Source: Leptospiraceae bacterium
GTDB taxonomy: Bacteria; Spirochaetota; Leptospiria; Leptospirales; Leptonemataceae
Reading direction: 5' to 3'
DNA: 64,000 nt
NCBI GenBank assembly: GCA_040217195.1
Contig: JAVJNR010000004.1
Coordinates: 672,001-736,000, forward strand
Below, in pieces: positions 10,962-31,173 of this stretch. The position numbers and the translations under genes are program-made. The notes beneath the pieces are model-generated. The model was given only the letters and a program-made list of their open reading frames with translations. It had not been told where the DNA came from and made no database searches. Within the stretch, counting starts at the first letter, position 1. Each line of letters starts with the position of its first letter.

Positions 10962-11007
10962 AAAACTCCGCATCCAGGCTCTGCTTTCGCTGATCCCGGG
11001 ATGCGGA
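10962..11007 (-). terminator. Stem-loop after nirK (partial terminator or mRNA stabiliser)
   Basis: TCCGCATCC...GGATGCGGA arms, followed by TTTT on the minus strand. Confidence 0.55.
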
Positions 11008-11017
11008 ATTCCCTCTA

Positions 11018-12397
11018 TTATCGCTGCGCTTTTACCTCCGCCGGGGTAACCTCATAACCAGGGTTATTCCACTTACTATTGATATAAGTGAGAACATTGG
11101 CTATTTCCGAATCGCTGAGTCCCAGAGCAGGCATAACACCATTGTATTGTTCTCCATTTACTGTTATAGGCTCTCGCAGCCCATGAAGTACAGCTCTAAT
11201 ACTGGCACGCTTATTCTTTAGATAGTCCGAACTGGCCAGAGGTGGAAAGGATCCCTTCACTCCATTGCCGTTCATCTGGTGACAGGCAGCACAGTTATGT
11301 TCGTATACATTTTTGCCTGCCTCAATTCTCTCTGCAACAGTGGCCAGACTCGGAGCCCGGACTTCATCATCCACAGATTGAATCGCACCACCTTCCGGAT
11401 GGTAGATTTCATCGGATACCTTGCCAGAGTAGACGATTGGATCATCCTCTCCTTCCACTTTCAGCATTCCCAGAGCACCCTTGTTAAATGCTCTAAAGAT
11501 TGAGTGGTCCACGAGAATATACGTACCCGGAGCATCCGTGCGAAATTCCACAATCGTGGCTCCACCGGCCGGTATCAGAGTAGTCTGCACATTTTCCTGA
11601 TTGGCCCGGGTTCCGCCTTCCGTATATACCCGGTCAAATATCTCTCCAATGACATGGAAGGAACTCACCAGGTTGGGACCACCATTGCCTACAAACAAAC
11701 GCACTGTCTCCCCTTTGTTTGCAGTGATTGCATTTTTATCGGTGAGAGCGCCCACGGAGCCGTTAAAAACTACGTACTCAGCGTCTTCGCGTACTGCTTT
11801 CTCCATGTCAAAGGGCTGATGTCCTGGCTTTCCGAATCTCTGTTTCGTATAGAATTCAGATTGAAGAACATAGTATTCTCTGTCGACTTCTGGTAGTCCT
11901 CCGGCTGGCTCAACGAGTATAAGCCCATACATTCCGTTGGCAATGTGCATCCCCACCGGTGCGGTTGCGCAGTGATAGATATATAGCCCGGGATTTAATG
12001 CCTTGAACTTGAATGTGGATGTGTGGCCAGGGGCTGTGAAAGAGGAAACGGCTCCCCCTCCAGGTCCGGTCACCGCATGCAGATCTATGTTATGAGGCAT
12101 TTTGCTGTCAGGATGATTACTCAGTTGAAACTCTATTTCATCATCCTCTCGCACGCGAATAAAGGGCCCGGGGACTTTGCCACCAAAGGTCCAGAAGGTA
12201 TACGTCACTCCATCGGCCAGACGCATTTCCACTTCGCTGGTTTCAAGCTTGACGATCACATAAGCCGGTCCCCGATCAATGGGTGCCGGAACATTCGGAG
12301 CAAAGGTTAATTCTGCTTCAATCGTAGGCTTTTCACAGGCCAATAGCCCGGCTACGAAAAGTGGCAGAATGAACCATTTTATTTTTTTGGGATTCAT
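11018..12397 (-). CDS. nirK: Copper-containing nitrite reductase with fused C-terminal cytochrome c; predicted lipoprotein
   Basis: [24 protein letters not shown] and SSFHVIGE copper ligands; C-terminal CAACH...MP haem domain; LLAC lipobox; GGAGG before ATG 12397. Confidence 0.97.
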
Positions 12398-12444
12398 AAT
12401 CGCCTCCAATGATCATAGAGTAAACCAATCCAGCCGTTCAGGCA

Positions 12445-12458
12445 TTGATAACTATCAA
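12445..12458. promoter_or_regulatory. FNR/DNR-type box for nirK
   Basis: TTGATAACTATCAA; minus-strand -10 TACTCT begins 29.5 bp from the box centre. Confidence 0.85.
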
Positions 12459-12623
12459 GCGAAGGTAATGATTCAAAAAAATGACCCCTCGAAGGAGGGG
12501 CCCATGGGGGAAGGATTCTCGATTAACATGGCTCGAAAGAGGGTCGCAGGGAAATGGAGCTATGCCTGAACTTGATAGGCTTTTACTCATAAGCCTGTGC
12601 CTGCTCTGCCTGGCCGGTGTTTG

Positions 12624-14369
12624 CTAGAATTTTGCAGTAACCATTAGATATGCAAAATCACTCCTGGGGTCGAATGCCGGGTCTCGCAGATCCGGTTGAT
12701 TAAACGTCTCATCCACTCTGTGGCGAATAGAGCTCAGTGCATAAGCCTGACCGTAACCAATGTCCAGCTTAAGTTGATTTACCGATACGGAATAGGTGAT
12801 GTTGTATTCATGGAATAGCTGCGAGCTCAGCTGAGCCACGGAATTCTCGGATATCTTTCTGTTGGCATCCAGAACGGTTGAGTACCTGGAGTTGCTGCTG
12901 GTTTCGGTGCTCATCAGTTCCCCGTCCCCGTCTCGGGCCACTGCCCCGCCATTAGAATAGTAACTGTCCTGAGCCCGGTGTTTCTTGAAATGCCAGTACG
13001 CAATCTTCATATTTCCTGCTTTGCCCAGATCCAGGCCCAGAGTCAGAGCTCGAGCTATAAGATTGCGGGAGCCCACCAGATCCATATCGCCCATGGGACC
13101 ATGATTTGTGGGATAAAGTTGCGTGTAGGTATTGATCCTGGCATCATTTCGGTTCGCATCTCCGCTGGCCAACTCCGCCACCAATCCAATTCGGAAGGTT
13201 TCCAGAGGTTTGAACCCCAGGTCTGCATAGATCGCATACGCTTCATAACTTTGCTTTTCTGTGTACACCGGATCGCCATTTGCATCTACTTGATTCAGCC
13301 AATCCCATCCGGCCTGCACCCTTTCTCCGTTAAAGCCAGTTTGAATAGCCCCTTCCAGGGAATAATCAAACATTGGATGAGCGCTCTTGCCTTTAACAGT
13401 TTTATTGGTGATTCGCAAACCCACTGTGTGCAGATTATCTCTCTGACGATCACGAGCTCTGGGAGGCACTGGGATTCCAGGATAGGGAGATACGCTGGCA
13501 GGGATCCATTTTTTATACACACCTATGTAATATGGCTCCAGCTGAAACTGTGGATGAATGCGAAATTCATTGTAGAATACTGCCAGGTAAGCATCGTCCA
13601 GCTCACGGGCTGTGCTGGCCTGCACAGTACATAGTTTCGTAGTAGGATCGCAGCTAAACGTCAGGCCAGACGGATTAGAGCGACCCACCTGAGTACCGTT
13701 TCCTCCACCATCACTATCTTCTTCAGCAAGCACTGCGCCTGCCATGGAAGTCTTCCAGATTCCCCATTCCATGTGCATTTCCAGAGCATCAAAGCTACGC
13801 CCGACATTGCTCCAGCCTACTTTGCCGATCTGTCGTTCGCTTCCGTAGGCCAGCATCTGACGGCCGAATCGAATTCCCAATGGCCCCAGTAGGTTCTCTG
13901 ACTGGATGTAGGCTTCGCGCATATCCAGGGAATCCTCGGTGAAGTCATTTGCAGTACCAAAACCATTATCTGAACCTGGATTTCCTCCCCATACACGGGA
14001 GTCCTGAATTCGCAACACAATAGATGTATCTTCAGATAAGTTCTTTTCCAGTCCCAGCTGTGCGATACTACCTACGAACTCTCTCGTATCGTCCGTTCTT
14101 CGGTTAAAGTCCGAATTTGCATGAAATTCCGGGCGAATGCGGGCCATTCCAAAAATGGTAAGTCCATCAGTCCAGTTGATTGCCTCCGCTGACAGAGGAA
14201 CGGCGAACAATAAAACAAAGGCTGAAAGCGCCGATCGCCATTTTCCAGGATTCAGGAGCCTGGCTTGCGCCAGCCGCCATTGTTCAGTCTTCCCGGCCTC
14301 CCCGGTCGGTTCCTTCCGGTTCCTGTTTCCGGACCGGACATCACATTGGGAATCATGTTCAGGTTTCAT
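12624..14369 (-). CDS. Alginate export (AlgE-like) family outer-membrane porin
   Basis: RIRPEF, RIQDSRVWG, LDMREAY, GRQMLAYGSERQIG..GWSNVGRSFDA and ASGD...YPTNH motifs; C-terminal Phe. Confidence 0.82.
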   Translation of the reverse strand: MKPEHDSQCDVRSGNRNRKEPTGEAGKTEQWRLAQARLLNPGKWRSALSAFVLLFAVPLSAEAINWTDGLTIFGMARIRPEFHANSDFNRRTDDTREFVGSIAQLGLEKNLSEDTSIVLRIQDSRVWGGNPGSDNGFGTANDFTEDSLDMREAYIQSENLLGPLGIRFGRQMLAYGSERQIGKVGWSNVGRSFDALEMHMEWGIWKTSMAGAVLAEEDSDGGGNGTQVGRSNPSGLTFSCDPTTKLCTVQASTARELDDAYLAVFYNEFRIHPQFQLEPYYIGVYKKWIPASVSPYPGIPVPPRARDRQRDNLHTVGLRITNKTVKGKSAHPMFDYSLEGAIQTGFNGERVQAGWDWLNQVDANGDPVYTEKQSYEAYAIYADLGFKPLETFRIGLVAELASGDANRNDARINTYTQLYPTNHGPMGDMDLVGSRNLIARALTLGLDLGKAGNMKIAYWHFKKHRAQDSYYSNGGAVARDGDGELMSTETSSNSRYSTVLDANRKISENSVAQLSSQLFHEYNITYSVSVNQLKLDIGYGQAYALSSIRHRVDETFNQPDLRDPAFDPRSDFAYLMVTAKF

Positions 14370-14405
14370 AATGCCTTAGAATATTACGGCCGGAGCCGCT
14401 TTTCC

Positions 14406-14419
14406 TTGACATTTATCAA
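14406..14419. promoter_or_regulatory. FNR/DNR-type box for the AlgE-like porin
   Basis: TTGACATTTATCAA; minus-strand -10 TATTCT at 29.5 bp. Confidence 0.8.
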
Positions 14420-14626
14420 ATGATGATGTGAATACCTGGAGCAAGGTAGGCTGATGCGTATCCGACATGGAAAAAACCGCGGCCGATTCTGCGGTCCAGG
14501 ATTGTATTCTTGAACGGATCGTTAGTTCTTGCTCAGCAATGGGCCCATCGGAACGCCTATTCGAATTACTCTTCGCACTTGATACAGATCAATTACCGAT
14601 CCTTTTGGGCCGGCTAATATTTATCC

Positions 14627-15091
14627 ATGGTTTTGCGAAGCGAAGATGGTCGGGAGGATGCTTCAACGGATAGAAACCGAAACAGGCGAGTTGCCCTTGC
14701 CAGATATCAGAAGTTACCGTTAATGTATTCTTGCTCTGGATGCTCCAGTGCGGCTCAACTGGCCAATGATTTAGCTCTTCGCGCCGACCGCGAAGAGCTG
14801 GCAGAAATGTCCTGTATTGCAGGCGTTGGTGCCGGAATTAAACCCCTGGTCCATACTGCACGTTCCGGTCGACCTATAATTGCTCTAGATGGCTGTCCGC
14901 TTCACTGTGCCCGAATGGCATTGAAAAATCTAGCGATTATAGCTGATGTACATATAGACCTCTCACGTCATGGAGTGAAGAAGCGATACCATGAATCGGC
15001 CACACCGGATGAATACAAACATTCATGGGAGGCTGTTGTGCAACCGGCGGTCAGCGAACTCATGTTATTGCATCTGGGGTCTGAACAATAG
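14627..15091 (+). CDS. DGC-domain putative zinc-binding protein (start uncertain)
   Basis: LPLMYSCSGCSSAAQLAN...EMSCIAGVG...IALDGCPLHC. Confidence 0.85.
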   Translation: MVLRSEDGREDASTDRNRNRRVALARYQKLPLMYSCSGCSSAAQLANDLALRADREELAEMSCIAGVGAGIKPLVHTARSGRPIIALDGCPLHCARMALKNLAIIADVHIDLSRHGVKKRYHESATPDEYKHSWEAVVQPAVSELMLLHLGSEQ

Positions 15092-15307
15092 AATTTCAGC
15101 AATCCACTATAGCTCTAGCTTCAGAGCAATCCTGCGTTTCATACTACAGATTACAAATACCCGAAACTAGAATAGGGACTTTTTCCGGGCCGGATAACAC
15201 AGGAATCAAAAAGTCCGACTCCAGACTGGCCTTTTGCGAGTATTTCCTTTTAGCTTTCTGGATTCTGTATCCGTTTTCTATCGCAAGGAAAATTCGCTTC
15301 AGGAGCT

Positions 15308-15862
15308 CTAAGGATTCAGCTCTGCCAGGATTTCTTTCCAGTTATGTGGATTCCAGTTTCCGGTGCCTTTTATTCTAGCCCTGATCTGACGATCTACGAT
15401 AATATAACTTACAGGAATGGCATTCACCGCATAGGAGCTCCGGAGCTCCTGGGAACGATTGCGAACCACCAGCAAATTTTGGATCACCTCTCTCTGGAGA
15501 AATTGCGAAACGGCCCCATCGTGATTGTCTATAGAAATCGCAATTACTAGAAGTTCCCTTCTGCTGAATTGGCCTTGCAGTTTACTTAGCTCTTTCATCT
15601 CAGCTCTACAGGGAATGCAATACGTAGCCCAGAAATGGACGATGATCAACCTGCTTCTGATCGATAGTAGTTCAACCTTAGATCCATTTAGACTTTCTAA
15701 CCTAAAGTTCGGAGCAGACCGCACATCAACTGGCACATCAAATCCTGCCTCTGTCCAGAAGCTTGAATCTATGGTCTGGGCCCGAAGTTCCGAGCATAGC
15801 AGAAGAACCAGAACCGGGCCAATTGCCTTGAGAAACACTGCTTTTGATCCAATCCCCATCAT
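15308..15862 (-). CDS. TlpA/ResA family thiol-disulfide oxidoreductase
   Basis: Signal/TM segment, APNFRL, FWATYCIPCRAEM, cis-Pro AIP. Confidence 0.88.
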   Translation of the reverse strand: MMGIGSKAVFLKAIGPVLVLLLCSELRAQTIDSSFWTEAGFDVPVDVRSAPNFRLESLNGSKVELLSIRSRLIIVHFWATYCIPCRAEMKELSKLQGQFSRRELLVIAISIDNHDGAVSQFLQREVIQNLLVVRNRSQELRSSYAVNAIPVSYIIVDRQIRARIKGTGNWNPHNWKEILAELNP

Positions 15863-15911
15863 AAACCTGACTCCCTGGAGACAATCCTACTTTCTCAGCG
15901 TTCTTTCTGCC

Positions 15912-15925
15912 TTGATTCAGGTCAA
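15912..15925. promoter_or_regulatory. FNR/DNR-type box for the tlpA-like gene
   Basis: TTGATTCAGGTCAA; minus-strand -10 TAGGAT at 29.5 bp. Confidence 0.8.
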
Positions 15926-16008
15926 AAAGCGACGGGCTTAGCCTTTTTCTACCGGCATCACCAGATAGAATAAATGCAACCGAAGGCTGGGTTTGCGTTC
16001 CAACGTAT

Positions 16009-16665
16009 ATGCGAGTTACAGATCTATTTGGAGTTCTTCCCACAAGAAGCCAGGAAGCCTGGAATGCATTAACCCATGGTATGGGATTATTCATCAGTAT
16101 TCCTGCCGGTATTGTTTTGCTTTTCAAAGCTTCTCGATCGGACGATGGACTGACCATAATGGCAGCATTGATCTTTTCTGCAGCTCTTTTGCTACTCTAT
16201 GCCTCTTCCACTCTCTATCATACCAGCCAGAGAATTCGACTAAAGTTCGTTCTGCGAAAGATAGATCATTCAGCTATCTACATTTTCATTGCCGCAAGTT
16301 ACACACCATTCAGCCTGATACTTCTTCGAGATCATCCATACCTGGGATGGCCACTTTGCGTATTGATCTGGACTGCCGCTGCGGCCGGTATTCTTTATAA
16401 ATCATTCTTTATCCATAAGTTCGATACCGTTGCCACGCTATTGTATCTTGCCATGGGCTGGGTGGCCATTTTTGGAGTGACAGAAATCATTCAGAGGCTG
16501 GAGCCAGCAGGGCTTCTTTTACTCGTTGCAGGCGGACTCAGTTATACCCTGGGAGTGGGCTTTTACTTCTGGAGTTCCTTACGAGCTCACCATGCAATAT
16601 GGCATCTGTTTGTCCTTGCAGGTTCTCTATTTCATTACTGGACCATACATAGCTACGTACTATGA
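16009..16665 (+). CDS. Hemolysin III / PAQR (TrhA) family membrane protein
   Basis: EAWNALTHG, SSTLYH, RKIDHSAIY and HAIWHLFV motifs. Confidence 0.93.
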   Translation: MRVTDLFGVLPTRSQEAWNALTHGMGLFISIPAGIVLLFKASRSDDGLTIMAALIFSAALLLLYASSTLYHTSQRIRLKFVLRKIDHSAIYIFIAASYTPFSLILLRDHPYLGWPLCVLIWTAAAAGILYKSFFIHKFDTVATLLYLAMGWVAIFGVTEIIQRLEPAGLLLLVAGGLSYTLGVGFYFWSSLRAHHAIWHLFVLAGSLFHYWTIHSYVL

Positions 16666-16688
16666 TCATGGGCCTCCGGTTTCGCATC

Positions 16689-17060
16689 TCAGATTTCGGA
16701 CTCAAGATAGTCCCGAATCAGTCTTAGTTGAGCCCCGGACAGAGGTTGCCTACCCCGGCCACGACGGTAGTGCTCCATTCTGCGAATTGTATTTGTCCAG
16801 CCTCCCGGAACCTTCTGGGCCGGGTTGGGCAAGGCATGACATTCGCTACAAACTTCGCCAAACAGAACTCTTCCTCTGGATAGCTGGTCCCCTGGAGCTA
16901 CCGACTCTGGCGCCAAGCCAAAAACACCTGACAGACAAGAAAAAGAAGGGATAACCCAGAACATGGAAATTGCCAGTAAAGACCGGGCAAACGGCCGCAA
17001 TACCGGAGCCAGCCCGAGTCTGCTGTTCACCATCTGCCCGGTAATTCGTGGCTCCGGCAT
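16689..17060 (-). CDS. Small monohaem cytochrome c, probable lipoprotein (start 17060 or 17033)
   Basis: GRVLFGEVCSECHALP...WTNTIRRM; hydrophobic stretch ending SFSC; AGAGG before ATG 17060. Confidence 0.75.
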   Translation of the reverse strand: MPEPRITGQMVNSRLGLAPVLRPFARSLLAISMFWVIPSFSCLSGVFGLAPESVAPGDQLSRGRVLFGEVCSECHALPNPAQKVPGGWTNTIRRMEHYRRGRGRQPLSGAQLRLIRDYLESEI

Positions 17061-17118
17061 TGCCTCTACCTGGCACGATTTTATGAGGCCTGGACTGTCG
17101 CTGTCCGTCTGGCCCAGG

Positions 17119-17199
17119 ACTTTCGCTACTTTCGCTACTTTCGCTACTTTCGCTACTTTCGCTACTTTCGCTACTTTCGCTACTTTCGCTAATTTCGCC
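17119..17199. repeat. 9-bp tandem repeat (ACTTTCGCT)x8 plus one degenerate copy
   Basis: Read directly from the sequence. Confidence 0.97.
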
Positions 17200-17313
17200 T
17201 GTTCATTGCCTTTTTGCATTCAGGGCTCCACTGCCGCCGACCCAAAAATAGAAATCCACTTTCCCATACGAAAGCAGGCCCGGAATTAATCATCCGCGCC
17301 TGCCAACGGGTTT

Positions 17314-18588
17314 CTAGAACCCGAGAGAATCGGGCTGCCCGGAACTCTCGGAATGCCTTACGCTACTGGAAGTGGGAATTTCCAAATAGTAAGCCAGCTG
17401 CACTGTGTACTCCCGGGGCATTTGAATGCCTCGAAACCTCTGTTCCACCGGCACGGCCACCGATAGTTCCAGAACCTGCAATGGAACTGGCTGCCATTGA
17501 ATTCCAGCCGTAATGGAATGAATCTCCCCGCCGTAATTATCCGGGTCCCAGGCAGGACTCATGTATTCAGAGAAGATATTTCCATCCGTTGCTCGGCCCG
17601 CATCTCCGCGGTAAGCCTCTTCATGCTCGCCCTGCAAAGCCCCCTGCCATTGAGAGTTCCATTGAATGTGGGCCACTAGACTGGGCAGCAACTGATACAT
17701 GGCATAAACATCCAATCGGTAAAAGTCACCCAGAGAGTAGTTATGCTTATTTCTGTACGCTCGACCTGTGTATAGAAGAGTGGCCCCCCACCAGTAAGGA
17801 GATGCCGATCCCTGGTAGGCAAGGCCTGCCACCGGATCAAAAGTTCCTGACCCAAGCTGCATGGAATACGGCATAGGCTCGCTGCGACGATCCGGAAATG
17901 AGCTATTAAAGTCGGTCAGGTTTAGAGGAGCCGTGGGATTTCCCAGAGGATGGTTCCTGTTCTTTTCATCGATGGAGCCTGTGGGTAGACTCAGTCCTGC
18001 GATGATGGATAATTGATTGGTGGGAGCCAGAGAGTCATCTTCCAGGACTCTATATTTTCCCATTAGCATTGTATCGCTCATCCCGGATGTTTTCATTGTA
18101 TAATGCGAACGACCTAGCATATTTCGCATCATATAGTTAAACTTCATCTTCATGTACTTTTCCTGATACATGGTCATCAGCATAGCTGCGAAGCGGTCCG
18201 AGAAACTGTAAGCCGCAGAGATGTCGTACATATTCATGTACATCCTTTGCGGAGCTGCCATATATTTTCTTCCGGTAAGCTCTCCTGTAATTCGATTGTT
18301 AATGGCCATGATATTCGCATCCATGGACAGGCTCATACTTCCAGGAACGGAAAGCACAGCTTCCGTGGACAAAGATCCGGAACCTTGAAGTCCTCGCATG
18401 CTCATATGCATTGGCTTTATTTTCAGTCTAAATTCATGGGTTTCCGGTATTCCAGCGCCCAGGATGTTCAGTGGCATGTTACCTCCGCAATGGAGACAGC
18501 AAAGACCCGTGTCGGCCTGAGCCGGCGGTACATATAGTAGAGTTAGCAGGCAGAAGACCATAGCTCCGCCAGTAAGATAATGTTTCAT
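17314..18588 (-). CDS. Exported Met-rich protein, probable outer-membrane beta-barrel of the 'transporter'/MetA-pathway-like class
   Basis: Signal peptide ending AQA; CCLHC at the mature N-terminus; GLSLPTG and MQLGSGTFD motifs; MHMSM, MYMNM and MLMTM motifs. Confidence 0.7.
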   Translation of the reverse strand: MKHYLTGGAMVFCLLTLLYVPPAQADTGLCCLHCGGNMPLNILGAGIPETHEFRLKIKPMHMSMRGLQGSGSLSTEAVLSVPGSMSLSMDANIMAINNRITGELTGRKYMAAPQRMYMNMYDISAAYSFSDRFAAMLMTMYQEKYMKMKFNYMMRNMLGRSHYTMKTSGMSDTMLMGKYRVLEDDSLAPTNQLSIIAGLSLPTGSIDEKNRNHPLGNPTAPLNLTDFNSSFPDRRSEPMPYSMQLGSGTFDPVAGLAYQGSASPYWWGATLLYTGRAYRNKHNYSLGDFYRLDVYAMYQLLPSLVAHIQWNSQWQGALQGEHEEAYRGDAGRATDGNIFSEYMSPAWDPDNYGGEIHSITAGIQWQPVPLQVLELSVAVPVEQRFRGIQMPREYTVQLAYYLEIPTSSSVRHSESSGQPDSLGF

Positions 18589-18592
18589 TTTT

Positions 18593-18678
18593 TCCTCCCT
18601 GATTGGAACGGATTGAGGTCCCGAAACATTGGAGGCATCGGGACCTCCGGCGATTATGCAAATCGCCAGGAAGGAGGA
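18593..18678 (-). promoter_or_regulatory. Predicted mRNA junction sequestering the Shine-Dalgarno of the Met-rich gene
   Basis: mRNA UCCUCCUU (18678-18671, in the D-P-P-S codons) pairs with AGGGAGGA (18600-18593), enclosing a 7-bp stem (18667-18649) and a 10-bp stem (18647-18615). Confidence 0.7.
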
Positions 18679-19103
18679 TCTCGAGCTCTGGAAACTATGC
18701 TGTCTGTTGCGATCGAAATTGGAGGCGATGCAAAAGCCAGACCGCCTTTCTGAGATTGAATTTGAAGTGCGTAGAAATCTGCTTTGTTCAGATCCTGAAT
18801 GGATAGATAGCCCTGGCAGACGGGACAGACACCGTGATCATGGACCGGTTCTTCATTCGCATCTTTATCCAGGTTAGTCGACGTAGTACCCGGTTTCGCC
18901 GGCTGGACCTGGTGAGCTTCTGATCCGGTCCGGTGACAATCTCCTGGTCGATCCAGGGAACTTTGTGTATTACGGGCAACAGATCCTATTTCCGGACAAT
19001 GATGGAGGGCTGGCACCGCATTGGCCACCAGGAAGCTGGCAAGGACTAACTGCGAAGTAAACAGTCGTGCTGCGGCCTCTCCTGATCTTTTCCAGCGTTT
19101 CAT
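18654..19103 (-). CDS. DUF2946-like (CutF/CruR-type) leader protein
   Basis: Hydrophobic N-terminal segment, HHC, CH, HDHGVCPVC, C-terminal RARDPP (RAPP-like). Confidence 0.75.
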   Translation of the reverse strand: MKRWKRSGEAAARLFTSQLVLASFLVANAVPALHHCPEIGSVARNTQSSLDRPGDCHRTGSEAHQVQPAKPGTTSTNLDKDANEEPVHDHGVCPVCQGYLSIQDLNKADFYALQIQSQKGGLAFASPPISIATDSIVSRARDPPSWRFA

Positions 19104-19198
19104 ATCGGATTTGCGAATCCGGGATACCGGTGCCTGTTAAAAGGTCTATTCGGCTACCATCATCTGTTAACAGGATATCAGAAATGAAACATTGGGCC

Positions 19199-19212
19199 TT
19201 GATAGTTATCAA
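19199..19212. promoter_or_regulatory. FNR/DNR-type box for the DUF2946-like operon
   Basis: TTGATAGTTATCAA; minus-strand extended -10 TGATATCCT (hexamer at 28.5 bp). Confidence 0.82.
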
Positions 19213-19341
19213 CCGGGCTTAATTAAATCATTGGCGACATCCTTCATGAGAGTTAACAATCATACTCTCAGAGAAGGTGAATTCTATTTCGCAGCCAATT
19301 GAAACGCCGGAGCTTTCTGTCCCATTACAATAATCGGCAGC

Positions 19342-19641
19342 CTACAACTGTAGAGTTTTACGACCCTCGGGCGAAATCCGCTGCGGAGTCCAGGGAGGAT
19401 CGAATACAAGAGATAGTATGACCTCATGGTCTGGCCATTCTGCTTGAACCGTTGCTTCCACTTCCTCCAGAATGAGCGGTCCCACAGGACAACCCGGCGA
19501 AGTCAGAGTCATCTCAATTTCAATATCCCTGTCATCTATTTTGATCTGATTTAGAAGACCCAGATCTACAATGTTCAGCCCCACTTCAGGATCCAGAACC
19601 TGCCGTAGCTTTTCTTCTATTGAACTCTCTTCGACATTCAT
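19342..19641 (-). CDS. DUF59/SufT-like metal-sulfur cluster assembly factor
   Basis: LRQVLDPEVGLNIVDLGL, TLTSPGCP and FDPPWTP motifs; ATG 19641 overlaps the upstream stop. Confidence 0.92.
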   Translation of the reverse strand: MNVEESSIEEKLRQVLDPEVGLNIVDLGLLNQIKIDDRDIEIEMTLTSPGCPVGPLILEEVEATVQAEWPDHEVILSLVFDPPWTPQRISPEGRKTLQL

Positions 19642-20894
19642 ACAGATCTCCTTCGCAAAACGAATAGTACCAGATGGATAAAATATGTGAAATAAAAACC
19701 AACTGTTAGAAGCAGTGCCAATACACCGGCAATCATTGCATCGCTCCAGAAAATACCCAGAACCAGGACAAGAACGGACAGTGGATAAATCCACAGGATC
19801 ACCGATGCAATCCAGGAAATACCTATATTCTGAGGCAATGGAACCTGCTTACCTCTCGCTCCGGATTGCAAAGCCATCCAGCTCATAAAAGGAAGAATCT
19901 TAAATCCCATACCCAGAGTTGCACTTCCAATGAATCCCAGAAGCATGACCATCACGGAGGCAAATGCAAAGCGATAGGGCTGTATCGTTGCAGTTAATGA
20001 GCCGGAATCGAATATACCGACTGCAAGAAATAGGGCCGCAATCAGAGGGAAGGCAAAGGATCCCAGAAAAAGAATCATTGGAGCCTCAAGTCTTCTTCGC
20101 ATTCTCTTGCGAACGCACTGAAACAGATAAACCAGGAAGCCACCATAACCAGCCAGGATCAGAGCGAATCCCAAAGCTGCGTTTGCAGCCCGGCCAGAGA
20201 TTGCACCTGGAAGTAGTAACAGAGGCGAAACCATCAAAAGAACCCCTGAGTATCTGGCCCATCGTTCGTTCATTCCATGACTCAAAATAAACATAGGCAC
20301 CAGACGAGTTCCCAGAGCCAGAATCATTAGAGAAAACCATCCCAGGATTCCGGTCCAGGCATGCCACTGGACGAAACGGAGCGCAGGCACATGGAAGTAG
20401 TAGCCGGAGGCCATGAGCATACCGGAAAGTGCCATTAGAAGTAGCCACACAGAGCCGATGAGCACCTGAATAGCAGAACTATTCCAGTGACCTTTTCCTG
20501 TGGTCCAGATTAGTTGAGCGATAAGACCCAGTATGGCCAGAAAAAGCAACCCTGCGAACCCGGGCATTAGTCCGGGCTCTATAAGTCGACTCAGTACAAA
20601 GCCAGTAGCTCCAATCCACCATAAAATCGATGTGATCCATGCAAGTAAACGGCTACCCAGCTTGCCTTCTACGACCACCGGAAGTAGCTGGTAGAGCACA
20701 CCCAGAATACAGGGACTGATGGTCAATAGAGTAAAGGTATGTAGAACGACTATGATTCCTGGCTGGTAGTAATGACCCTTAAAGTCATCCACAAAATATA
20801 CAATGCCCGATGAAGTGGCAATCCAGCCAATGAGACCCACGGCAAAGTTGCTTAAGAGCAAATCGTAATGATTCTCTTTTGCTTCCGGAATCAT
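19638..20894 (-). CDS. Polytopic membrane protein with intramembrane His (haem-copper-oxidase-subunit-I-like / NnrS-like fold suspected)
   Basis: About 12 TMs; HTFTL...GVLYQLLPV, HAWTGILGW...RLVPMF and GMGFKILPF repeats; ATGA overlap at 20891-20894. Confidence 0.65.
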   Translation of the reverse strand: MIPEAKENHYDLLLSNFAVGLIGWIATSSGIVYFVDDFKGHYYQPGIIVVLHTFTLLTISPCILGVLYQLLPVVVEGKLGSRLLAWITSILWWIGATGFVLSRLIEPGLMPGFAGLLFLAILGLIAQLIWTTGKGHWNSSAIQVLIGSVWLLLMALSGMLMASGYYFHVPALRFVQWHAWTGILGWFSLMILALGTRLVPMFILSHGMNERWARYSGVLLMVSPLLLLPGAISGRAANAALGFALILAGYGGFLVYLFQCVRKRMRRRLEAPMILFLGSFAFPLIAALFLAVGIFDSGSLTATIQPYRFAFASVMVMLLGFIGSATLGMGFKILPFMSWMALQSGARGKQVPLPQNIGISWIASVILWIYPLSVLVLVLGIFWSDAMIAGVLALLLTVGFYFTYFIHLVLFVLRRRSV

Positions 20895-21745
20895 GGCCGC
20901 CTGCCAATAAGAAGTCGAACATCTCCTGGTCCCTTGTGCGATATGCAATACTGATAGCCCTGTTCTGCCAGATGAGGAAATAGAAATCGGGGCTCTCTTT
21001 CATGATAGACGTACAGACACTGACTGCTTCGCATCTCCTGCAATTTAGAAAGGATCTTCATCATGGGCTCCGGAGGTGCAAGACCTACGACATTGATTCT
21101 TAGCACAACAGAACGAGCGGACTCAGAACGCCCCCTCACCAGAGCTGATGGCCGGGACTGGCTTTGATTGATGCCATCTTCTGAGATCGCTCTATTGGTT
21201 TTCTTCCCTCGGATAAATCGAGCTTCGAATCCATCCTCTGTTTCAACTATGGTTCCTTCCAGCCCCTTCTTTCTCAGCAAAGGCACCAATGGTTCCGGGG
21301 CAAAAGAATTCAATACGCAGAGTCCATCCCCCGGCTCCATTTGTGCTACCAGTTCCAGAATCTTTGACAGTGGCTCCTGGCCCTTTTCCATAAAGGGACG
21401 TGCATCCAGGTAGTGAATCCGCTCCGGCTCAATGCCTGCATATTGTTCCAGGAATGCCTCATTGTCTTGCTGTCCGGCGAAATCTGATTCCTGAATCTTC
21501 CGGGGCGATCTGCGAACGGAAAGCCCAACACTCTCCAGGGAGTCCAGAATGTCATCTGTACTAACGCCGCCAATTCTAGCTGCCATTGCTATGGTTACCT
21601 GCCCGGCCATGACCTTTCGAAGTACCGGGTTCCGTAATTTCTTGAATCGACCACTTACAGAAATTAAAGCATCAATCGCTCCAGGATGTGCGATAACGCT
21701 TGCAATCCTGGAATTTTCATCAACTGTGTCTCTAAGATCTTTCAT
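20891..21745 (-). CDS. DUF1858-like plus two DUF2249 domain protein
   Basis: FKKLRNPVLRKVMAGQVTI N-terminal domain; LDAR...EPLSKI...NSFAPEPL; LAPPEPMMKIL...HEREPRFLFPHL. Confidence 0.8.
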   Translation of the reverse strand: MKDLRDTVDENSRIASVIAHPGAIDALISVSGRFKKLRNPVLRKVMAGQVTIAMAARIGGVSTDDILDSLESVGLSVRRSPRKIQESDFAGQQDNEAFLEQYAGIEPERIHYLDARPFMEKGQEPLSKILELVAQMEPGDGLCVLNSFAPEPLVPLLRKKGLEGTIVETEDGFEARFIRGKKTNRAISEDGINQSQSRPSALVRGRSESARSVVLRINVVGLAPPEPMMKILSKLQEMRSSQCLYVYHEREPRFLFPHLAEQGYQYCISHKGPGDVRLLIGRRP

Positions 21746-21804
21746 TCGATACCTCTGTATAGAATTGCCCGGACGGATTCAGACCTTGCCATTGCAGAAG
21801 CGAT

Positions 21805-22074
21805 TCAGCTACAGCAGCCTCCTCCAAAGCCCAGTTGTCCGTCCCCCAGGCGAGTGATCTTCACCTGAAAAAACTGAGGACCTTCTTCCAGATACTCCCA
21901 TCCAAAAGCGTTGGGCAATTCAGCCTGCATTTGGTAATAAAGTGGTTTTGGATCGTGATCATTGTAGATTACAAACCATTCCCCGTTTTTCAGTTCATTG
22001 AACCGGCTGAAAATGGTTGGATGCTTTTCCCGAGGCTCCAGAACTGTAACGTCCAGAATATTTTGTTCGCTCAT
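21805..22074 (-). CDS. DUF2249 domain protein
   Basis: LDVTVLEPREKHPTIF...NDHDPKPLYYQ...WEYLEEGP; C-terminal GGGCCS. Confidence 0.9.
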   Translation of the reverse strand: MSEQNILDVTVLEPREKHPTIFSRFNELKNGEWFVIYNDHDPKPLYYQMQAELPNAFGWEYLEEGPQFFQVKITRLGDGQLGFGGGCCS

Positions 22075-22206
22075 TTTTATCTCCTTGATTGAATTGAATT
22101 ATAGTTTGACATTCATTGCTGGCAGTGGTCCAGAGTTCCGAACCCTTACTCCACCAGATATGCAGTTTCCAGAGTTTAGATTAGGCAGGATTCGCACGGT
22201 TCTGCC

Positions 22207-22220
22207 TTGATCCAGATCAA
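22207..22220. promoter_or_regulatory. FNR/DNR-type box, possibly bidirectional
   Basis: TTGATCCAGATCAA; plus-strand -10 TAAGCT at 22243 (29.5 bp) and minus-strand TAATCT at 22183 (30.5 bp). Confidence 0.85.
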
Positions 22221-22283
22221 TGCGAATACAAAGTAGAAGGACTAAGCTCAGACTCTTCCCGTGAAGCTCTGGAGTAGAGAATA

Positions 22284-22796
22284 ATGAAAGATGCAGAGCC
22301 GTCGAACTCAGGAAAGCCGCCCACCGGCCAATCCCTTCAAGAACTTGTGGAGAAACTCTGCGAAGAGCATACTCGATTCTTAAAGCAAACTCTGCCAGAA
22401 CTACAAGAGCTTGCTTTCGAGATTCAGAATCCACCGTTGGTCCGATTTCTGGAAAACCTGTCCGATGAATTGCACGTTCATTTTCGAATGGAAGAGAGGC
22501 TGGTCTTCCCATTGATTCTTTCGCGTCTGGATCATCCAGGTCAGGCCATTGAACCGGCCCTGAGGCTGGCCTGTGATCATATGCGTGAAGACCATCGGAC
22601 CCATATGAAACATCTGCAGGTACTCCAGGCATTTCGCCAGCAGTTGGACGAGTCCCGGTACGATGCGCATAGAAGTGCTCTGAATGATACCCTGGAAAAG
22701 TTTTGCCTGGAGATTGAAAATCACTGCGACCTGGAGAATAAGTGGCTTTTTCATTACTGGCCCATGCTGGAAGATGAAAGTACAACTCTTCAGTGA
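22284..22796 (+). CDS. Hemerythrin-domain di-iron protein (RIC/YtfE-like, lacking the N-terminal domain)
   Basis: EEH...LPEL, HFRMEERLVFP, MREDH and HCDLENKWLF ligand motifs. Confidence 0.85.
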   Translation: MKDAEPSNSGKPPTGQSLQELVEKLCEEHTRFLKQTLPELQELAFEIQNPPLVRFLENLSDELHVHFRMEERLVFPLILSRLDHPGQAIEPALRLACDHMREDHRTHMKHLQVLQAFRQQLDESRYDAHRSALNDTLEKFCLEIENHCDLENKWLFHYWPMLEDESTTLQ

Positions 22797-22872
22797 ACCT
22801 GGAAAATCTACAGCAGGGTCGCAGCGATTGAGGCATTACCTGAGACATTGCCTTTTTGCTTGACGGCCCCAT

Positions 22873-22895
22873 AAGATGCATATTAAATACATGTT
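22873..22895. promoter_or_regulatory. NsrR-type operator (11-1-11)
   Basis: AAGATGCATAT-T-AAATACATGTT closely matches the proteobacterial NsrR consensus; TTGACG at 22860 just upstream. Confidence 0.75.
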
Positions 22896-23066
22896 ATGAG
22901 GCCCGGCCAATCAATTTTTATAGATGATGCCAGGTTTATGGCAGGGCCCGGTAATTCTCCTGAGATGACTCTTCAGGCCTCAGCCCGGAAGATGCGGACC
23001 ACATTCGTTTCCGAGCTGTTGAGGTGTATGACCTGTCATGGAGGCCAGGAGCTCAGGAGGGCTGCA

Positions 23067-23510
23067 ATGCAACTAACTACATTTACCGATTATTCATTGA
23101 GAATACTGATTCATGCATCCTTGAAGAGTCCGGATTTATCTACCGTGGCCGAGGTGTCCCGGCAATTTTCCATTTCTAAGAATCATGTGATGCGGATAGT
23201 TCAATTTCTGGGCCAACATGGTTTTCTTCGTAACATAAGGGGAAAGTCTGGAGGGTTTACACTCGGGAAAAGGGCGGAAGAAATATCCCTGGGTGAGGTG
23301 GTAAGATGCACCGAACAGAACCTGACCATAGTTCCCTGCTTTGCAGACGAGGTTCAGGGCGAACGATGCACCATTGAACCATCCTGCCGACTGGCTGGAA
23401 TCCTGAAGGAAGCCTTATCTGCTTTCCTGACGGTTATGGATGGCTATACGGTTCAGGATTTATTGACCGAAAGCCGGGGATTGAGGCAGTTACTGGGGCT
23501 TAAAGGTTAA
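23067..23510 (+). CDS. nsrR: Rrf2 family NO-sensing repressor
   Basis: MQLTTFTDYSLR, ISKNHVMRIV, RGKSGG, three Cys (CF...C...C); RBS AGGAGG. Confidence 0.88.
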   Translation: MQLTTFTDYSLRILIHASLKSPDLSTVAEVSRQFSISKNHVMRIVQFLGQHGFLRNIRGKSGGFTLGKRAEEISLGEVVRCTEQNLTIVPCFADEVQGERCTIEPSCRLAGILKEALSAFLTVMDGYTVQDLLTESRGLRQLLGLKG

Positions 23511-23585
23511 ACAGGCAACCCGCTTCTGACTGGATCCGAATGACAGACAAGGACGTAGAAAATTGATAAAATCGAGGAACGAGAT

Positions 23586-24056
23586 ATGAAACCAGGACAA
23601 AGCAAAACAATTGAAAGCGCAATGTCAGTATTCGCATACGTTGCAATGAGCATCGCTCTGATATTGGCACCGGCCTGTGGTGATGGCCATGACTCCCATC
23701 AAAAAAATGAAATACATTCCCATGCAGATGATCAAAAGCATGATGAGTCTCCGGTACAATTGAACAATGGGAAGAGATGGCAGGCTGATTCGGCTACCAA
23801 TGAATCAATCAGGAAAATGCAACAGTTGGCTTCGCAAAGGCCAGGTAATCCGTCCGTTGCTGGCCAAGAGTTACAAAAACAATTCAAGGTCCTATTGAAA
23901 GAATGCACAATGCAGGGACCCGCCCATGAGCAACTGCATGCCTATCTGCGTCCTTTACAGAGTAAAATAAAATCGCTGGAAAACTGCACCGACTGCCAGT
24001 CCAAAATGGAGGATCTCAATTCCTATCTCCATACCTATTCGGACTACTTTCAATAG
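23586..24056 (+). CDS. His-rich lipoprotein, DnrO-like
   Basis: APAC lipobox, His-rich linker, LNNGKRWQAD and CTMQGPAHEQLHAYL. Confidence 0.6.
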   Translation: MKPGQSKTIESAMSVFAYVAMSIALILAPACGDGHDSHQKNEIHSHADDQKHDESPVQLNNGKRWQADSATNESIRKMQQLASQRPGNPSVAGQELQKQFKVLLKECTMQGPAHEQLHAYLRPLQSKIKSLENCTDCQSKMEDLNSYLHTYSDYFQ

Positions 24057-24401
24057 GAATGGAAACCGGAAGCGAATCCAGATTCAAGGTAGACTTTTAA
24101 AGCCTGTCATTTACTGAGCAACCCGGAACTGATCATGATGTTCTGGTTCAAAACCAATCTGAACCAGAACGTGGGAGCTTTCCTTTTCTCGAGCCAGGGA
24201 GAAATCGGCTCTTTACGTAAATCCATAAAAAACCGGCCGGGTATGAGCCCGGCCAAATCCCCTATTCTCAAGTTTCTTTGCAGGTAGCGACTGCCTGTTT
24301 CCTGGCAGAAGGACGATTCGAAATAACCGGTTTCGCCCTTTCTGTTAGTCTCAGGCATTGCTGATGTGGACTTTCTATACCACAGAACAGCCTCCCACTC
24401 C

Positions 24402-24415
24402 TTGACATTTATCAA
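24402..24415. promoter_or_regulatory. FNR/DNR-type box overlapping the stop codon of the norF-like gene
   Basis: TTGACATTTATCAA, identical to the 14406 box including the flanking CC. Confidence 0.5.
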
Positions 24416-24657
24416 CCCATGGAAAAAAACCATAGTGCTCCGCCGGCAAAAAAGGAAAATAGAATCAGAAGCCAGATTCCATAAATTGGATGCGCGCGTC
24501 TCACTTCCATGAATTCCAGAGCAACTAGAGCAAACTTCGCAGCACTTAAAGCCAGAATCAAGATTAGAGAACCGGTGCGATATTCTGCGAATAGATACAT
24601 CCCCAGGATTAGAAGCAGAAGTACAAATAGAACGATGGTATTCAATTTTCGTATCAT
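24412..24657 (-). CDS. Cytochrome oxidase subunit IV family / NorF-like small membrane protein
   Basis: Three TMs, KFALVALEFMEVRRAH; TAATG overlap with norE. Confidence 0.8.
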   Translation of the reverse strand: MIRKLNTIVLFVLLLLILGMYLFAEYRTGSLILILALSAAKFALVALEFMEVRRAHPIYGIWLLILFSFFAGGALWFFSMG

Positions 24658-25247
24658 TACATTCCTCCACGAGCCAGTATGTAAATTGAAGGAAAGACCA
24701 GTATCCAGATCAAATCGCACATGTGCCAGAATACACCGATGGTTTCCACATCTTCATGATCGGCGGCTGAGTATCGCATCTTGCGGATTCCCAGGGCCGC
24801 CACAATCAGAAGAAAGGTGCCCACCACTACATGCAGAAAATGAAAGCCCGTAATTAGCCAGTACATGGTAAAGAATGTATCGTAATTCAGACCATAGCCG
24901 CTATCAAGCTTCTGATAGTATTCGAATCCTTTCAGGGCTAGAAAACCTGCCCCTGTGAGCACCCCCAGCCAGATAAGCAGCGAAGAGCGATTCTTCTGGT
25001 CCAGCCTTAGATTTCGAATTCCTTCGGCAACACACCAGCCTCCCACAATGAGAAGACCTGTATTCACAGTGCCCAGAGTTAGATTCAATGTTTGGGCTGA
25101 TTCCATAAAGGAATTTGCATCGCCGTATCTATAGGCGAAAAATACAATCAGTGCCGGAATAAAAGTCAGCATTTCGATTGATAGGATCATCCAAATCAGG
25201 ATCCCTCCTGGTGGATAATAAATTCTTTCACTTTGTTCGTGTTCCAT
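24657..25247 (-). CDS. norE: NorE (cytochrome c oxidase subunit III-like)
   Basis: PPGGILIW..I..E, GTVNT, LITGFHFLHV and FWHMCDLIW motifs. Confidence 0.87.
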   Translation of the reverse strand: MEHEQSERIYYPPGGILIWMILSIEMLTFIPALIVFFAYRYGDANSFMESAQTLNLTLGTVNTGLLIVGGWCVAEGIRNLRLDQKNRSSLLIWLGVLTGAGFLALKGFEYYQKLDSGYGLNYDTFFTMYWLITGFHFLHVVVGTFLLIVAALGIRKMRYSAADHEDVETIGVFWHMCDLIWILVFPSIYILARGGM

Positions 25248-25373
25248 AGCATACTCACATCAGATCCGCCAGCTCCCTGGTTAGGCATAAGGGCTAATTG
25301 TTTCAGGTAACCAATGCCTGAACTGGAGGATTCTTCATTCACTATAATATAGGGAAAATATTATGGCCGGGCA

Positions 25374-25387
25374 TTGCTACAGATCAA
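25374..25387. promoter_or_regulatory. FNR/DNR-type box for norEF (one mismatch)
   Basis: TTGCTACAGATCAA; minus-strand -10 TATTAT at 29.5 bp. Confidence 0.72.
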
Positions 25388-25504
25388 GGAAGTTCCATTT
25401 TCAGAACGAAACGTTCCTGACCCATTTGTAAGTTCATCCGCTCTTTCATTCTAAGGTCTGGCAGGTAGCCGAATCAATGGTGTCGATACAGGAATGAATT
25501 ATTG

Positions 25505-25580
25505 AAGGGATCTATCATCAGAAAGTATCTATCATTAAGAGGGATCTATCATCAGGAAGGATCTATCATTAGGAAGGATC
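25505..25580. repeat. Degenerate 17-bp tandem repeat (about GAAGGATCTATCATYAG), 4 copies plus a partial
   Basis: ATCTATCAT core at 25510, 25527, 25544 and 25561; partial at 25578. Confidence 0.9.
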
Positions 25581-25587
25581 AAGGAGC

Positions 25588-26211
25588 TTACTGTTCATCC
25601 AGCAGACGAACGTAGCCATCATTTTCAGTGATCCTACCTTGCTTTTTAAGGGCCGTGAAAGCCCGACTGAAAGCTTCAGCAGATACTCCAAGATACAGAG
25701 CCACCTGGTTTTTGGGAATATTAAGATAGACTTCCTTTTCTGCAGCTCCCAGAGCCTCCAGAAAAAAAACCACCCGCTCCTCTGTTGTATGCAGCATTAG
25801 CAAAGTAGTTTTATTTTTAAAGAACTCTGCATTGGAGACAAAGTCTTCCTGAAAGCATTGCTTTAAATCAGGATGCTTTTGCATCAGGGAAAGGCATTCA
25901 TCTACCGGGATATAGATGACTGCACCGTCGCGAACCGCCTCGCACGATGCAGGATAAACAGGCATGGTCTTCAGCATGGGAAGAGCGGCAATAATGGAAC
26001 CAGGGAAAAAAAAGTTAAGGATGGCTTCCTTTCCAGCTTCATTCAATTGATAGATCTTAAAAATTCCCTTATCTATTACGTAAGGCCCCCGAAACCCATC
26101 TCCCTGCAAAAATACGGTTTCTCCGGCTTCCAGGGTAATTCTCCTGGAAACACTCCGCAGTTTATCGCGACAGGGTTCGGGCACTCTATTCCAGAATTCG
26201 CTCTCCGGCAC
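25588..26211 (-). CDS. Crp/Fnr family regulator, DNR-like
   Basis: cNMP-binding-like domain (VFLQGD...GKEAIL); HTH LGVSAEAFSRAF with ExxSR; no FNR N-terminal Cys cluster. Confidence 0.88.
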   Translation of the reverse strand: MPESEFWNRVPEPCRDKLRSVSRRITLEAGETVFLQGDGFRGPYVIDKGIFKIYQLNEAGKEAILNFFFPGSIIAALPMLKTMPVYPASCEAVRDGAVIYIPVDECLSLMQKHPDLKQCFQEDFVSNAEFFKNKTTLLMLHTTEERVVFFLEALGAAEKEVYLNIPKNQVALYLGVSAEAFSRAFTALKKQGRITENDGYVRLLDEQ

Positions 26212-26246
26212 AAGGGCACATTGAAAGGATCGCTGCTAACTTTCAA

Positions 26247-27884: not shown

Positions 27885-27892
27885 AGTGTTTC

Positions 27893-30051: not shown

Positions 30052-30060
30052 GTAGCCCCC

Positions 30061-30783: not shown

Positions 30784-30839
30784 AGTTCCGCTCCTGCGCT
30801 CAATTTGGTGGAGCATAGACCGAAAAGAGTCTGAATTCC

Positions 30840-30853
30840 TTGATTCAGATCAA
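30840..30853. promoter_or_regulatory. FNR/DNR-type box for norCBQD
   Basis: TTGATTCAGATCAA; minus-strand -10 TATGCT at 29.5 bp. Confidence 0.87.
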
Positions 30854-31173
30854 TGAGGAGAAATTCATCTCTGCTCCACCGCCCTCGGTCATAAGGCCTA
30901 TATTGCTATTGTCCAATGTTTTTAATGGATTCGATGGATTTACGGTGATTAAAATTCAATGAGCATGGCAATAACGTTATAACCAGTCCTTCCTATAAGC
31001 CGTTGCAGGCGTTTAATAATTAAATAGCAATAATGATGGAACGCTAATACGCTATACCATTCTGGTGATTTAATTCGCGCATTGAGATTGGATCATGGAC
31101 CGCCGGGGGGAATGAGCCCCCTTTCGGAGGCCCAACGCCCATGGAAAGGCTTTCCGTCCCGGTAAAGGGTGGA

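Follow-up and report, generated by a model that had tools for sequence, protein, structure and literature searches.

The module described here, a putatively exported leader followed by an outer-membrane barrel, lies in a 64,000-nucleotide stretch of the genome of a Leptospiraceae bacterium (assembly GCA_040217195.1, contig JAVJNR010000004.1, positions 672,001 to 736,000), referred to below as the window. Its first gene is an open reading frame (ORF) of 149 codons which, judging by its sequence, is a divergent leader of the DUF2946/CruR type; the promoter is found directly upstream, and the next gene encodes a methionine-rich β-barrel, a candidate copper channel. The window is a denitrification island, with the copper nitrite reductase NirK, a cluster of the nitric oxide (NO) reductase type (cytochrome c-dependent) with NorQ/NorD-like genes, an NsrR-like Rrf2 protein and a CRP/FNR regulator. 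Its closest relatives are metagenome assemblies labelled Leptospiraceae, Leptonemataceae or Spirochaetaceae. The locus probably represents a genuine, though divergent, case of the CruR/CutF kind, in which the region that a stalled ribosome would cover (the footprint) encodes an anti-Shine–Dalgarno (anti-SD) strand; stalling, the response to copper and its polarity are predictions.

The leader starts at an ATG that lacks a Shine–Dalgarno (SD) sequence, and its product has a basic N-terminus followed by a hydrophobic stretch which, on hydropathy only, is a putative export signal. It is His-rich, with CPVC at residues 93–96 within a putative metal-binding motif and two extra cysteines (C36 and C56) upstream of it. 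The C-terminus reads RARDPPSWRFA*. The first-pass annotation had described a 149-residue ORF at this place, with a hydrophobic N-terminal stretch, an HDHGVCPVC-type motif and a terminal RARDPPS. All of these are present, except that the last is not terminal, RDPP (residues 141–144) ending five residues short of the stop. The literal RAPP of CruR is absent, RDPP being the RAPP-like motif. Synonymous sites are near saturation among the orthologues (identical codons in 33–38%), yet the motifs retain their Cys, His, Arg and Pro residues, and R141 is written with five different Arg codons over five loci; the ORF is therefore under selection at the protein level. It is very probably a functional leader of the arrest type.

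The assignment to DUF2946 had been proposed without a search. Neither Pfam nor NCBIfam gives a match for the window leader, and a genome-wide search with PF11162 (membership cut-off, at least 23.7 bits) also misses it, which speaks against the assignment; a CruR-type identity is supported by the relatives and by a feature search. Among the orthologues, L023 scores 23.7 bits, equal to the cut-off and over the full model, L022 15.5 and L021 11.0, while L024 gives no match. A word-index search with the leader returned three proteins among 26 candidates. A profile built from six leaders collected 27 proteins, with a DUF2946 match in 15 of the 25 that were scanned and the cut-off reached by three; C93 and C96 are invariant in 27 sequences. 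In a language-model feature search, DUF2946 clusters make up 22 of the 30 matches of the window leader (best, 0.96). The subfamily comprises 26 loci in 20 of the 156 genomes of the order, all 26 with 44–47 residues between CxxC and RxPP (44 in the window), and its arrest motif is RGPP in 10, RAPP in seven, RPPP in six and RDPP in three. The barrel is present in five of six genomes of the genus, and the four with upstream DNA all carry the leader, ending in RARDPP in two cases and in RARGPP in the other two. By sequence comparison, RDPP is a local derivative of RGPP/RAPP confined to three close species. Depletion of RDPP in the proteome is not significant (one found, 3.8 expected). The codon CCT, which encodes the first Pro in 20 of 27 loci, was set aside as weak evidence, because CCT opens 45% of the Pro-Pro pairs in this genome.

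When the genome was scanned for the motif, the window leader was the sole match; a paralogue recovered by a profile search was missed. This second leader (G000:C5:165999+; L138:5489-10427, minus strand) ends in LPRPPPFRQG and heads genes for MbnP, MbnH, a lipoprotein-like ORF and a LIC11086-like outer-membrane protein; folding predicts that the SD of its target, too, pairs with the footprint (6.6 of 6.9 paired bases). Among the sister leaders, 11 of 16 precede MbnP copper-binding proteins and two precede related PF13557 barrels.

In the minimum-energy fold of the messenger, the strand 18678–18671 (UCCUCCUU) within the arrest codons pairs with the SD of the barrel gene at 18600–18593 (AGGGAGGA) through eight pairs, one of them G-U. 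This pairing, and the two hairpins of 7 and 10 base pairs (bp) between its strands, the first over the stop codon, had been noticed in the sequence and are recovered as described. A second register (18675–18668) lies 0.2 kcal/mol above the best one, and the core SD bases have an unpaired probability of at most 0.11 in five choices of folding window. The whole 111-nucleotide (nt) region folds into a three-way junction of −41.5 kcal/mol (z −3.4) that is equalled by one of 200 shuffles; measured against 257 ordinary gene pairs from the genome, the duplex falls within the top 3%. Covariation is uninformative for hairpin 1, because its core is invariant in the four sequences compared (six of six pairs never vary).

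Comparison across loci supports this geometry. From 252 relatives of the barrel, 80 loci were kept, in 26 of which a leader was picked by eye, the criteria being an exported ORF upstream of the barrel that is rich in Cys and His and has Pro-Pro at its end. Together with the window these make 27 loci, from the window's genus, Zetaproteobacteria, Nitrospirota, Nitrospinota and Delta/Thermodesulfobacteria, none of them labelled Gammaproteobacteria. By these criteria 54 of the 80 have no leader, seven of the 54 having less than 500 nt upstream. Two loci with doubtful Pro-Pro-ending ORFs (L052, L099), the second piece of L127 (L137) and four without a usable downstream gene (L112, L113, L128, L131) were left out; metagenome loci are near-copies of known orthologues plus one further leader type. 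Taken over the 27 loci, pairing of the 30-nt footprint with the initiation region downstream of it has −12.7 kcal/mol, against −10.2 with the initiation regions of other loci (p 0.001 when each of nine groups is represented by one locus; p 0.0002 within 12 Zetaproteobacteria loci). When an 18-nt window is slid along the leader, only positions between −12 and +12 relative to the first Pro give a signal, the other 31 windows having p >0.09. In full folds, at least five bases of the SD region are paired with the footprint in 17 of 27 loci, against six of 150 ordinary gene pairs from the window's genome. The peak recurs at offset 0, weaker (p 0.0045), in another 17 loci of the subfamily, of which 14 have targets other than PF13557 proteins. 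The cleanest case is that of L094 and L100, where a perfect 14-bp helix joins the R-P-P-Q-T codons to the SD region; these two loci are a better test system for the anti-SD geometry than the window.

Several results weigh against the switch, or at least against its strength in this window. The window duplex is individually not significant against synonymous resampling (p 0.14), as is the case in 15 of the 27 loci, the other 12 being significant at 0.05; only six of the 17 sister loci are paired in full folds; and the loci are related, which inflates the p values, with leaders chosen by eye. Blocking the footprint lowers the predicted cost of opening the window SD only from 7.7–8.6 to 6.0–7.2 kcal/mol, a gain of 1–2 kcal/mol, because a local hairpin forms and re-masks the SD. 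In L021 the change is at most 0.5 kcal/mol, the junction lying within 0.4 kcal/mol of the best fold of that locus; in L022 it is about 3–7 kcal/mol. A terminating ribosome opens the SD equally well or better (5.8 versus 7.2 kcal/mol), so that dwell time, and not position alone, must carry the signal. The idea that a stalled ribosome frees the ribosome-binding site is supported as to masking by the footprint, and is weakened as to the size of the effect. Likewise, the Pro-Pro codons would act as the anti-SD in the window, where both registers fall in the D-P-P-S-W codons, and not as a rule: L023 has its anti-SD in the Ile-Leu-Ser codons that follow the prolines, still in the footprint, so that what is conserved is masking by the footprint rather than by the Pro-Pro codons strictly. 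In sum, support for the RNA geometry is good across loci and only modest in this window, and the anti-SD helix is likely to be part of the output.

Twelve Zetaproteobacterial leaders precede the same barrel (L053, L058, L064, L070, L072-L075, L078, L080, L086 and L087). They share a conserved core of the CxCxC..LPHQLAPH type and a terminal PPP, and no DUF2946 match was found in four that were scanned or in L073; judging by sequence, they may form an unnamed leader family.

The barrel is of the PF13557/COG4313 type (29.5 bits against a PF13557 cut-off of 22), with 664 relatives among 3622 candidates. Its structural model (predicted local distance difference test, pLDDT, of 87.6) finds its best fold matches in FapF (PDB 5o65, 5o67) and the COG4313 channel Pput2725 (PDB 4rl8), with E of about 1e-12 to 1e-13, template modelling (TM) scores to the target of 0.64–0.75 and identities of 9–11%; the titles of these entries name no metal role. 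In 119 sequences an N-terminal CCxxCGGNMP motif and alternating methionines are invariant or nearly so. Conserved methionines (37/39, 91/93/95, 113/115/121/123 and 149/151, mature numbering) occupy alternate positions on neighbouring strands, in phase with conserved polar residues, and because of this alternating parity in the sequence, rather than from the model, they are predicted to line the lumen. As a candidate copper channel, the barrel is the least described part of the locus and the part most worth experiment. The copper-type target suggested by the first-pass annotation is in this way supported by the methionine-rich barrel and the MbnP-preceding sister leaders, with a putative role in copper passage.

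A RegB-type kinase gene is divergently upstream in 21 of the 80 barrel loci, none of which has a leader, a split confounded with taxonomy; RegB/RegA-type two-component pairs are found divergent to leaderless barrel genes in L041 and L056, for instance. This suggests that redox control replaces the leader in such loci. Directly upstream of another barrel gene lies a Cys-rich protein of four-helix type with a Tat-like signal (L082:27-512), which has no family match and which we take to resemble copper storage proteins.

The perfect FNR-type box upstream of the leader, reported in the first-pass annotation, is confirmed, and it is separated by exactly 18 nt from TGn + TAnnnT, with identical spacing in all five loci of the genus. 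We presume the geometry of class II activated promoters, and base on it both the placement of the box and a transcription start near 19165. A scan for sigma-70 promoters is at chance level (six versus 5.5). Strict FNR boxes are not enriched genome-wide (14 found, 9.9 expected), and the window holds five against 0.14 expected per 64 kilobases; of relaxed FNR-type boxes, the window contains eight of the 23 in the genome (12445, 14406, 14579, 15912, 19199, 22207, 24402 and 30840). These eight mark a compact regulon of nirK, a porin, a haemolysin-III-family gene, DUF2249 genes, a hemerythrin and norC, and TTGACATTTATCAA is present twice. The CRP/FNR protein of the island, one of two HTH_Crp_2 matches above cut-off in the genome, has an ExxSR recognition helix, whose meaning we assume from general knowledge, as we do its likeness to Dnr. 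Because it is devoid of the N-terminal cysteines of FNR, an NO-linked activator of the Dnr type is suggested, and this protein is the likely activator of the leader–barrel module. Directly 3′ of its gene lies a 17-bp tandem repeat of 4.3 copies (25506–25580).

An FNR-type box within 1 kilobase of the barrel is found in only four of the 80 loci, every one in the window's genus; the promoter is conserved across the genus, but genus-specific. Moreover, a related genome that is 92% complete (G004) has the denitrification island and no barrel match. The link of the leader–barrel module to denitrification is therefore real, but local and accessory. NirK has a C-terminal cytochrome c domain, and its gene is followed by FGE-sulfatase-like and SCO genes, an arrangement kept in G004 without the module. 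The one NosZ family searched in the genome gave no match above cut-off. Two RNA runs of the same sample have no reads on 11000–30900, which says nothing either way on expression. At the start of the cytochrome c-like ORF, 3′ of the barrel, there is a near-perfect 9-bp tandem repeat of 8.9 copies (17119–17198). The coordinates of all features are collected in Table 1.

Table 1. Features of the leader–barrel locus and its neighbourhood (window positions)
Feature	Position	Strand	Basis and remarks
Copper nitrite reductase NirK, likely copper client	11018..12409	-	TIGR02376 above cut-off; own FNR-type box at 12445
TlpA/ResA-type thioredoxin, usual barrel partner gene	15308..15862	-	Within 2 kilobases of barrel start in 73/80 loci
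Small CxxCH cytochrome c-like ORF 3′ of barrel, true start uncertain	16689..17219	-	Weak match; relatives in 18/80 barrel loci
Outer-membrane β-barrel, PF13557/COG4313 type, 424 residues, candidate copper channel	17314..18588	-	Pfam, model, alignment
SD of barrel gene	18593..18600	-	Sequence
Local back-up hairpin, can re-mask SD when footprint is blocked	18593..18612	-	RNA folding
Hairpin 2, 10-bp stem (18647-18638/18624-18615)	18615..18647	-	Fold; different sequence in L021, L022 (by eye)
Hairpin 1, 7 bp (18667-18661/18655-18649), over stop codon	18649..18667	-	Fold; 6-bp core invariant 4/4
Leader ORF, DUF2946/CruR type, 149 residues, ATG without SD	18654..19103	-	ORF list, family searches; motifs kept at near-saturated synonymous sites
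Anti-SD strand in D-P-P-S-W codons, two registers	18668..18678	-	RNA folding
RDPP, putative arrest motif (RGPP in two orthologues)	18672..18683	-	First Pro CCT in 5/5 loci
C-rich nonamer, Ser-Pro-Pro codons 126–128, candidate Rho-utilisation element	18720..18728	-	Codon comparison; RNA-level conservation
HxHxxCxxC, putative metal-binding motif (H88, H90, C93, C96)	18816..18842	-	Invariant in 27-sequence alignment
Hydrophobic export-signal-like stretch, residues 14–33	19005..19064	-	12-residue hydropathy 2.3
Predicted extended −10 element (TG-A-TATCCT)	19172..19180	-	Transcription start predicted near 19165
FNR/Dnr-type box, perfect TTGAT-N4-ATCAA, class II-like placement	19199..19212	-	Sequence match; spacing kept in 5/5 same-genus loci
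CRP/FNR-family regulator without N-terminal cysteine cluster of FNR, likely activator	25588..26211	-	ExxSR recognition helix in sequence

Taken together, these features may describe a CruR-type copper leader with a translational output of the SecM/CutF type, a reading that, as a whole, we propose tentatively. Under denitrifying conditions, a Dnr/FNR-type activator would transcribe leader and barrel. The ribosome would pause once the Pro-Pro of RDPP occupies its P and A sites, by analogy with CruR and ApdA/ApdP, and would cover the strand that is predicted, with conservation, to pair with the barrel SD across the three-way junction, so that the barrel could be translated. Available copper would bind HxHxxCxxC, 44 residues upstream and just beyond the exit tunnel, whereupon the pause would be released, the helix would re-form and barrel synthesis would drop, possibly with the help of Rho. 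The barrel would serve as a methionine-lined outer-membrane channel feeding copper to NirK and other cuproproteins. The parts of this reading differ in strength: copper is probably the ligand, and a system that is off in copper is rather likely.

The known systems set the terms of this reading. CruR of Bordetella pertussis (Bp2923; DUF2946/PF11162) has 45 residues between CxxC and RAPP, a spacing that matters, and works without a signal peptide (PMC9426467); its arrest and toeprint have been reported (PMC12992588). The window leader resembles CruR as the first gene of an operon, with a putative export signal, a CxxC about 45 residues before a near-C-terminal RxPP, C-rich Pro-Pro codons upstream of the stall site and an outer-membrane protein downstream; CruR-type operons also carry MbnP/MbnH, as those of the sister leaders do. 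It differs in RDPP instead of RAPP, in an intergenic region of 65 instead of 162 nt, in a predicted SD masking where Rho termination was demonstrated for CruR, and in a COG4313-type barrel with an FNR-type promoter, in a spirochaete lineage, in place of a TonB-dependent transporter. In CutF-cutO of Rhodobacter capsulatus, the SD of the second gene is hidden in a stem-loop, which opens when a ribosome stalls (PMC9973294; PMC8456105; bioRxiv 10.1101/2025.02.05.636593). A masking stem-loop of this kind, within reach of a stalled ribosome, is present here by prediction and conserved across loci, and the putatively exported leader with a Cys motif and the short intergenic region are also alike; the CutF stem-loop is described as intergenic, whereas here the predicted anti-SD lies in leader codons. 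CutF has CxxxC and PPP, depends on elongation factor P, is induced by copper and precedes a multicopper oxidase; the window leader has CxxC and RDPP. The first-pass proposal that copper binds during export and shuts off translation is weakened by the dispensable signal peptide of CruR and by the opposite polarity of CutF. SecM-secA, ApdA and ApdP share the RxPP-type core, and stalling on SecM unmasks an SD, but these are secretion monitors without a metal motif and RDPP is known there only as a mutant (PMC7897499; PMC10987492; PMC12992588), a partial staller in ApdA/ApdP (PMC12992588). No SD-masking hairpin is predicted for ApcA, ApdA or ApdP (PMC7897499).

CutF also provides the alternative that survives best, that of the opposite polarity: copper binding during export would cause or prolong the stall, and barrel, cytochrome and TlpA would be made in the presence of copper, for cuproprotein maturation or copper release. 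The SD-masking output is that of CutF, the Zetaproteobacterial leaders of the same barrel end in PPP like CutF, which counts against the low-copper polarity, C36 and C56 have their parallel in CutF, and RDPP, as a weak staller, might need a second input. On the other hand, CxxC and RxPP at 44–47 residues are the signature of CruR, sister leaders precede MbnP/MbnH, which are also found in CruR-type operons, and no efflux or oxidase gene follows the barrel in this window. We consider this polarity unlikely here.

Rather less probable is that Rho-dependent termination, as in cruR, is the main output and the anti-SD helix secondary. The nonamer at codons 126–128 parallels the Pro120-Pro121 Rho-utilisation (rut) region of cruR (PMC9426467). 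It is conserved at the RNA level (identical codons in nine of 10 same-residue comparisons, against a background of 34%), and no conserved pairing partner was found for it; C exceeds G 60–120 nt before the leader stop in five of five orthologues, the Rho gene is present in the genome, and the pairing is often missing from sister loci whose intergenic region is long. Nevertheless, the leader–barrel intergenic region is only 59–65 nt long and strongly paired, and the locus-specific SD complementarity is under selection across groups. No terminator-like site is listed for this intergenic region.

It is improbable that RDPP is a weakened arrest, in which case the helix would merely tie barrel translation to a leader ribosome that passes or terminates, and the Dnr-type box would provide most of the control at the level of transcription. 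The restriction of RDPP to three close species, its partial stalling, the opening of the SD by terminating ribosomes and the small predicted switch in two of the three RDPP loci would fit; the strict retention of R141, P143, P144, HxHxxCxxC and their spacing at saturated synonymous divergence would not. Finally, a leader sensing another soft metal (Zn, Ni, Co), the periplasmic thiol-disulfide state or secretion status is very improbable, for although the leader is His-rich, 73 of 80 loci have a TlpA gene beside the barrel, RegB-type kinase genes stand upstream in 21 leaderless ones and some CutF-like proteins have been proposed to serve other metals (PMC9973294), the Met-rich barrel, the CxxC and the neighbours MbnP, PCuAC and NirK all indicate copper.

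With the copper-repressed, SD-masking leader retained as the preferred reading, its novelty is narrower than the first-pass annotation claimed. OprC/NosA of Pseudomonas is expressed anaerobically and repressed by copper, and its methionine tracks conduct Cu(I) (PMC8610252); oprC also has a cruR homologue upstream (PMC9426467). The window barrel, whose regulation would be similar, resembles it as a methionine-rich, denitrification-linked outer-membrane protein with a Cys site, under predicted anaerobic expression and copper repression. The anaerobic-and-low-copper logic is thus already known and is not new in itself. CutF-like genes upstream of nosZ/nosR are already published, in a source that calls spirochaete CutF-like proteins scarce (PMC9973294), and RDPP was a known partial staller. 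What was not met in the literature, as covered by titles and openings of abstracts and with most subscription papers outside this scope, is a natural RDPP leader, an anti-SD in DUF2946 arrest codons or a copper role of PF13557/COG4313 barrels; the barrel itself may be listed in the neighbour table of PMC9973294. A term search of three supplementary files of PMC9426467 gave no match for PF13557, Leptospir- or RDPP.

In a wider sense, the barrel family might be a widespread copper channel of the outer membrane that works independently of TonB, its lumen lined with methionines and plugged by CCxxC, and switched by metal-sensing leaders of several types (RDPP, RGPP, RPP, PPP) whose footprint serves as anti-SD, the switch being gated in the window's genus by a Dnr-type promoter to supply NirK, with RDPP as a natural arrest motif of weaker tuning; we regard this generalization as possible but doubtful. 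Copper passage across the Gram-negative outer membrane has been described for few proteins, and leaders of the CruR/CutF type are a route to more. Those found here, in several phyla, single out an uncharacterised family of methionine-rich barrels, which becomes a concrete candidate for a copper channel. Within one small locus, two questions can be put to the test: does RDPP stall ribosomes in a natural leader, and can a single short run of codons be arrest motif and RNA switch at once? The occurrence of the same barrel behind both CruR-like and CutF-like leaders is relevant to what sets their opposite polarities.

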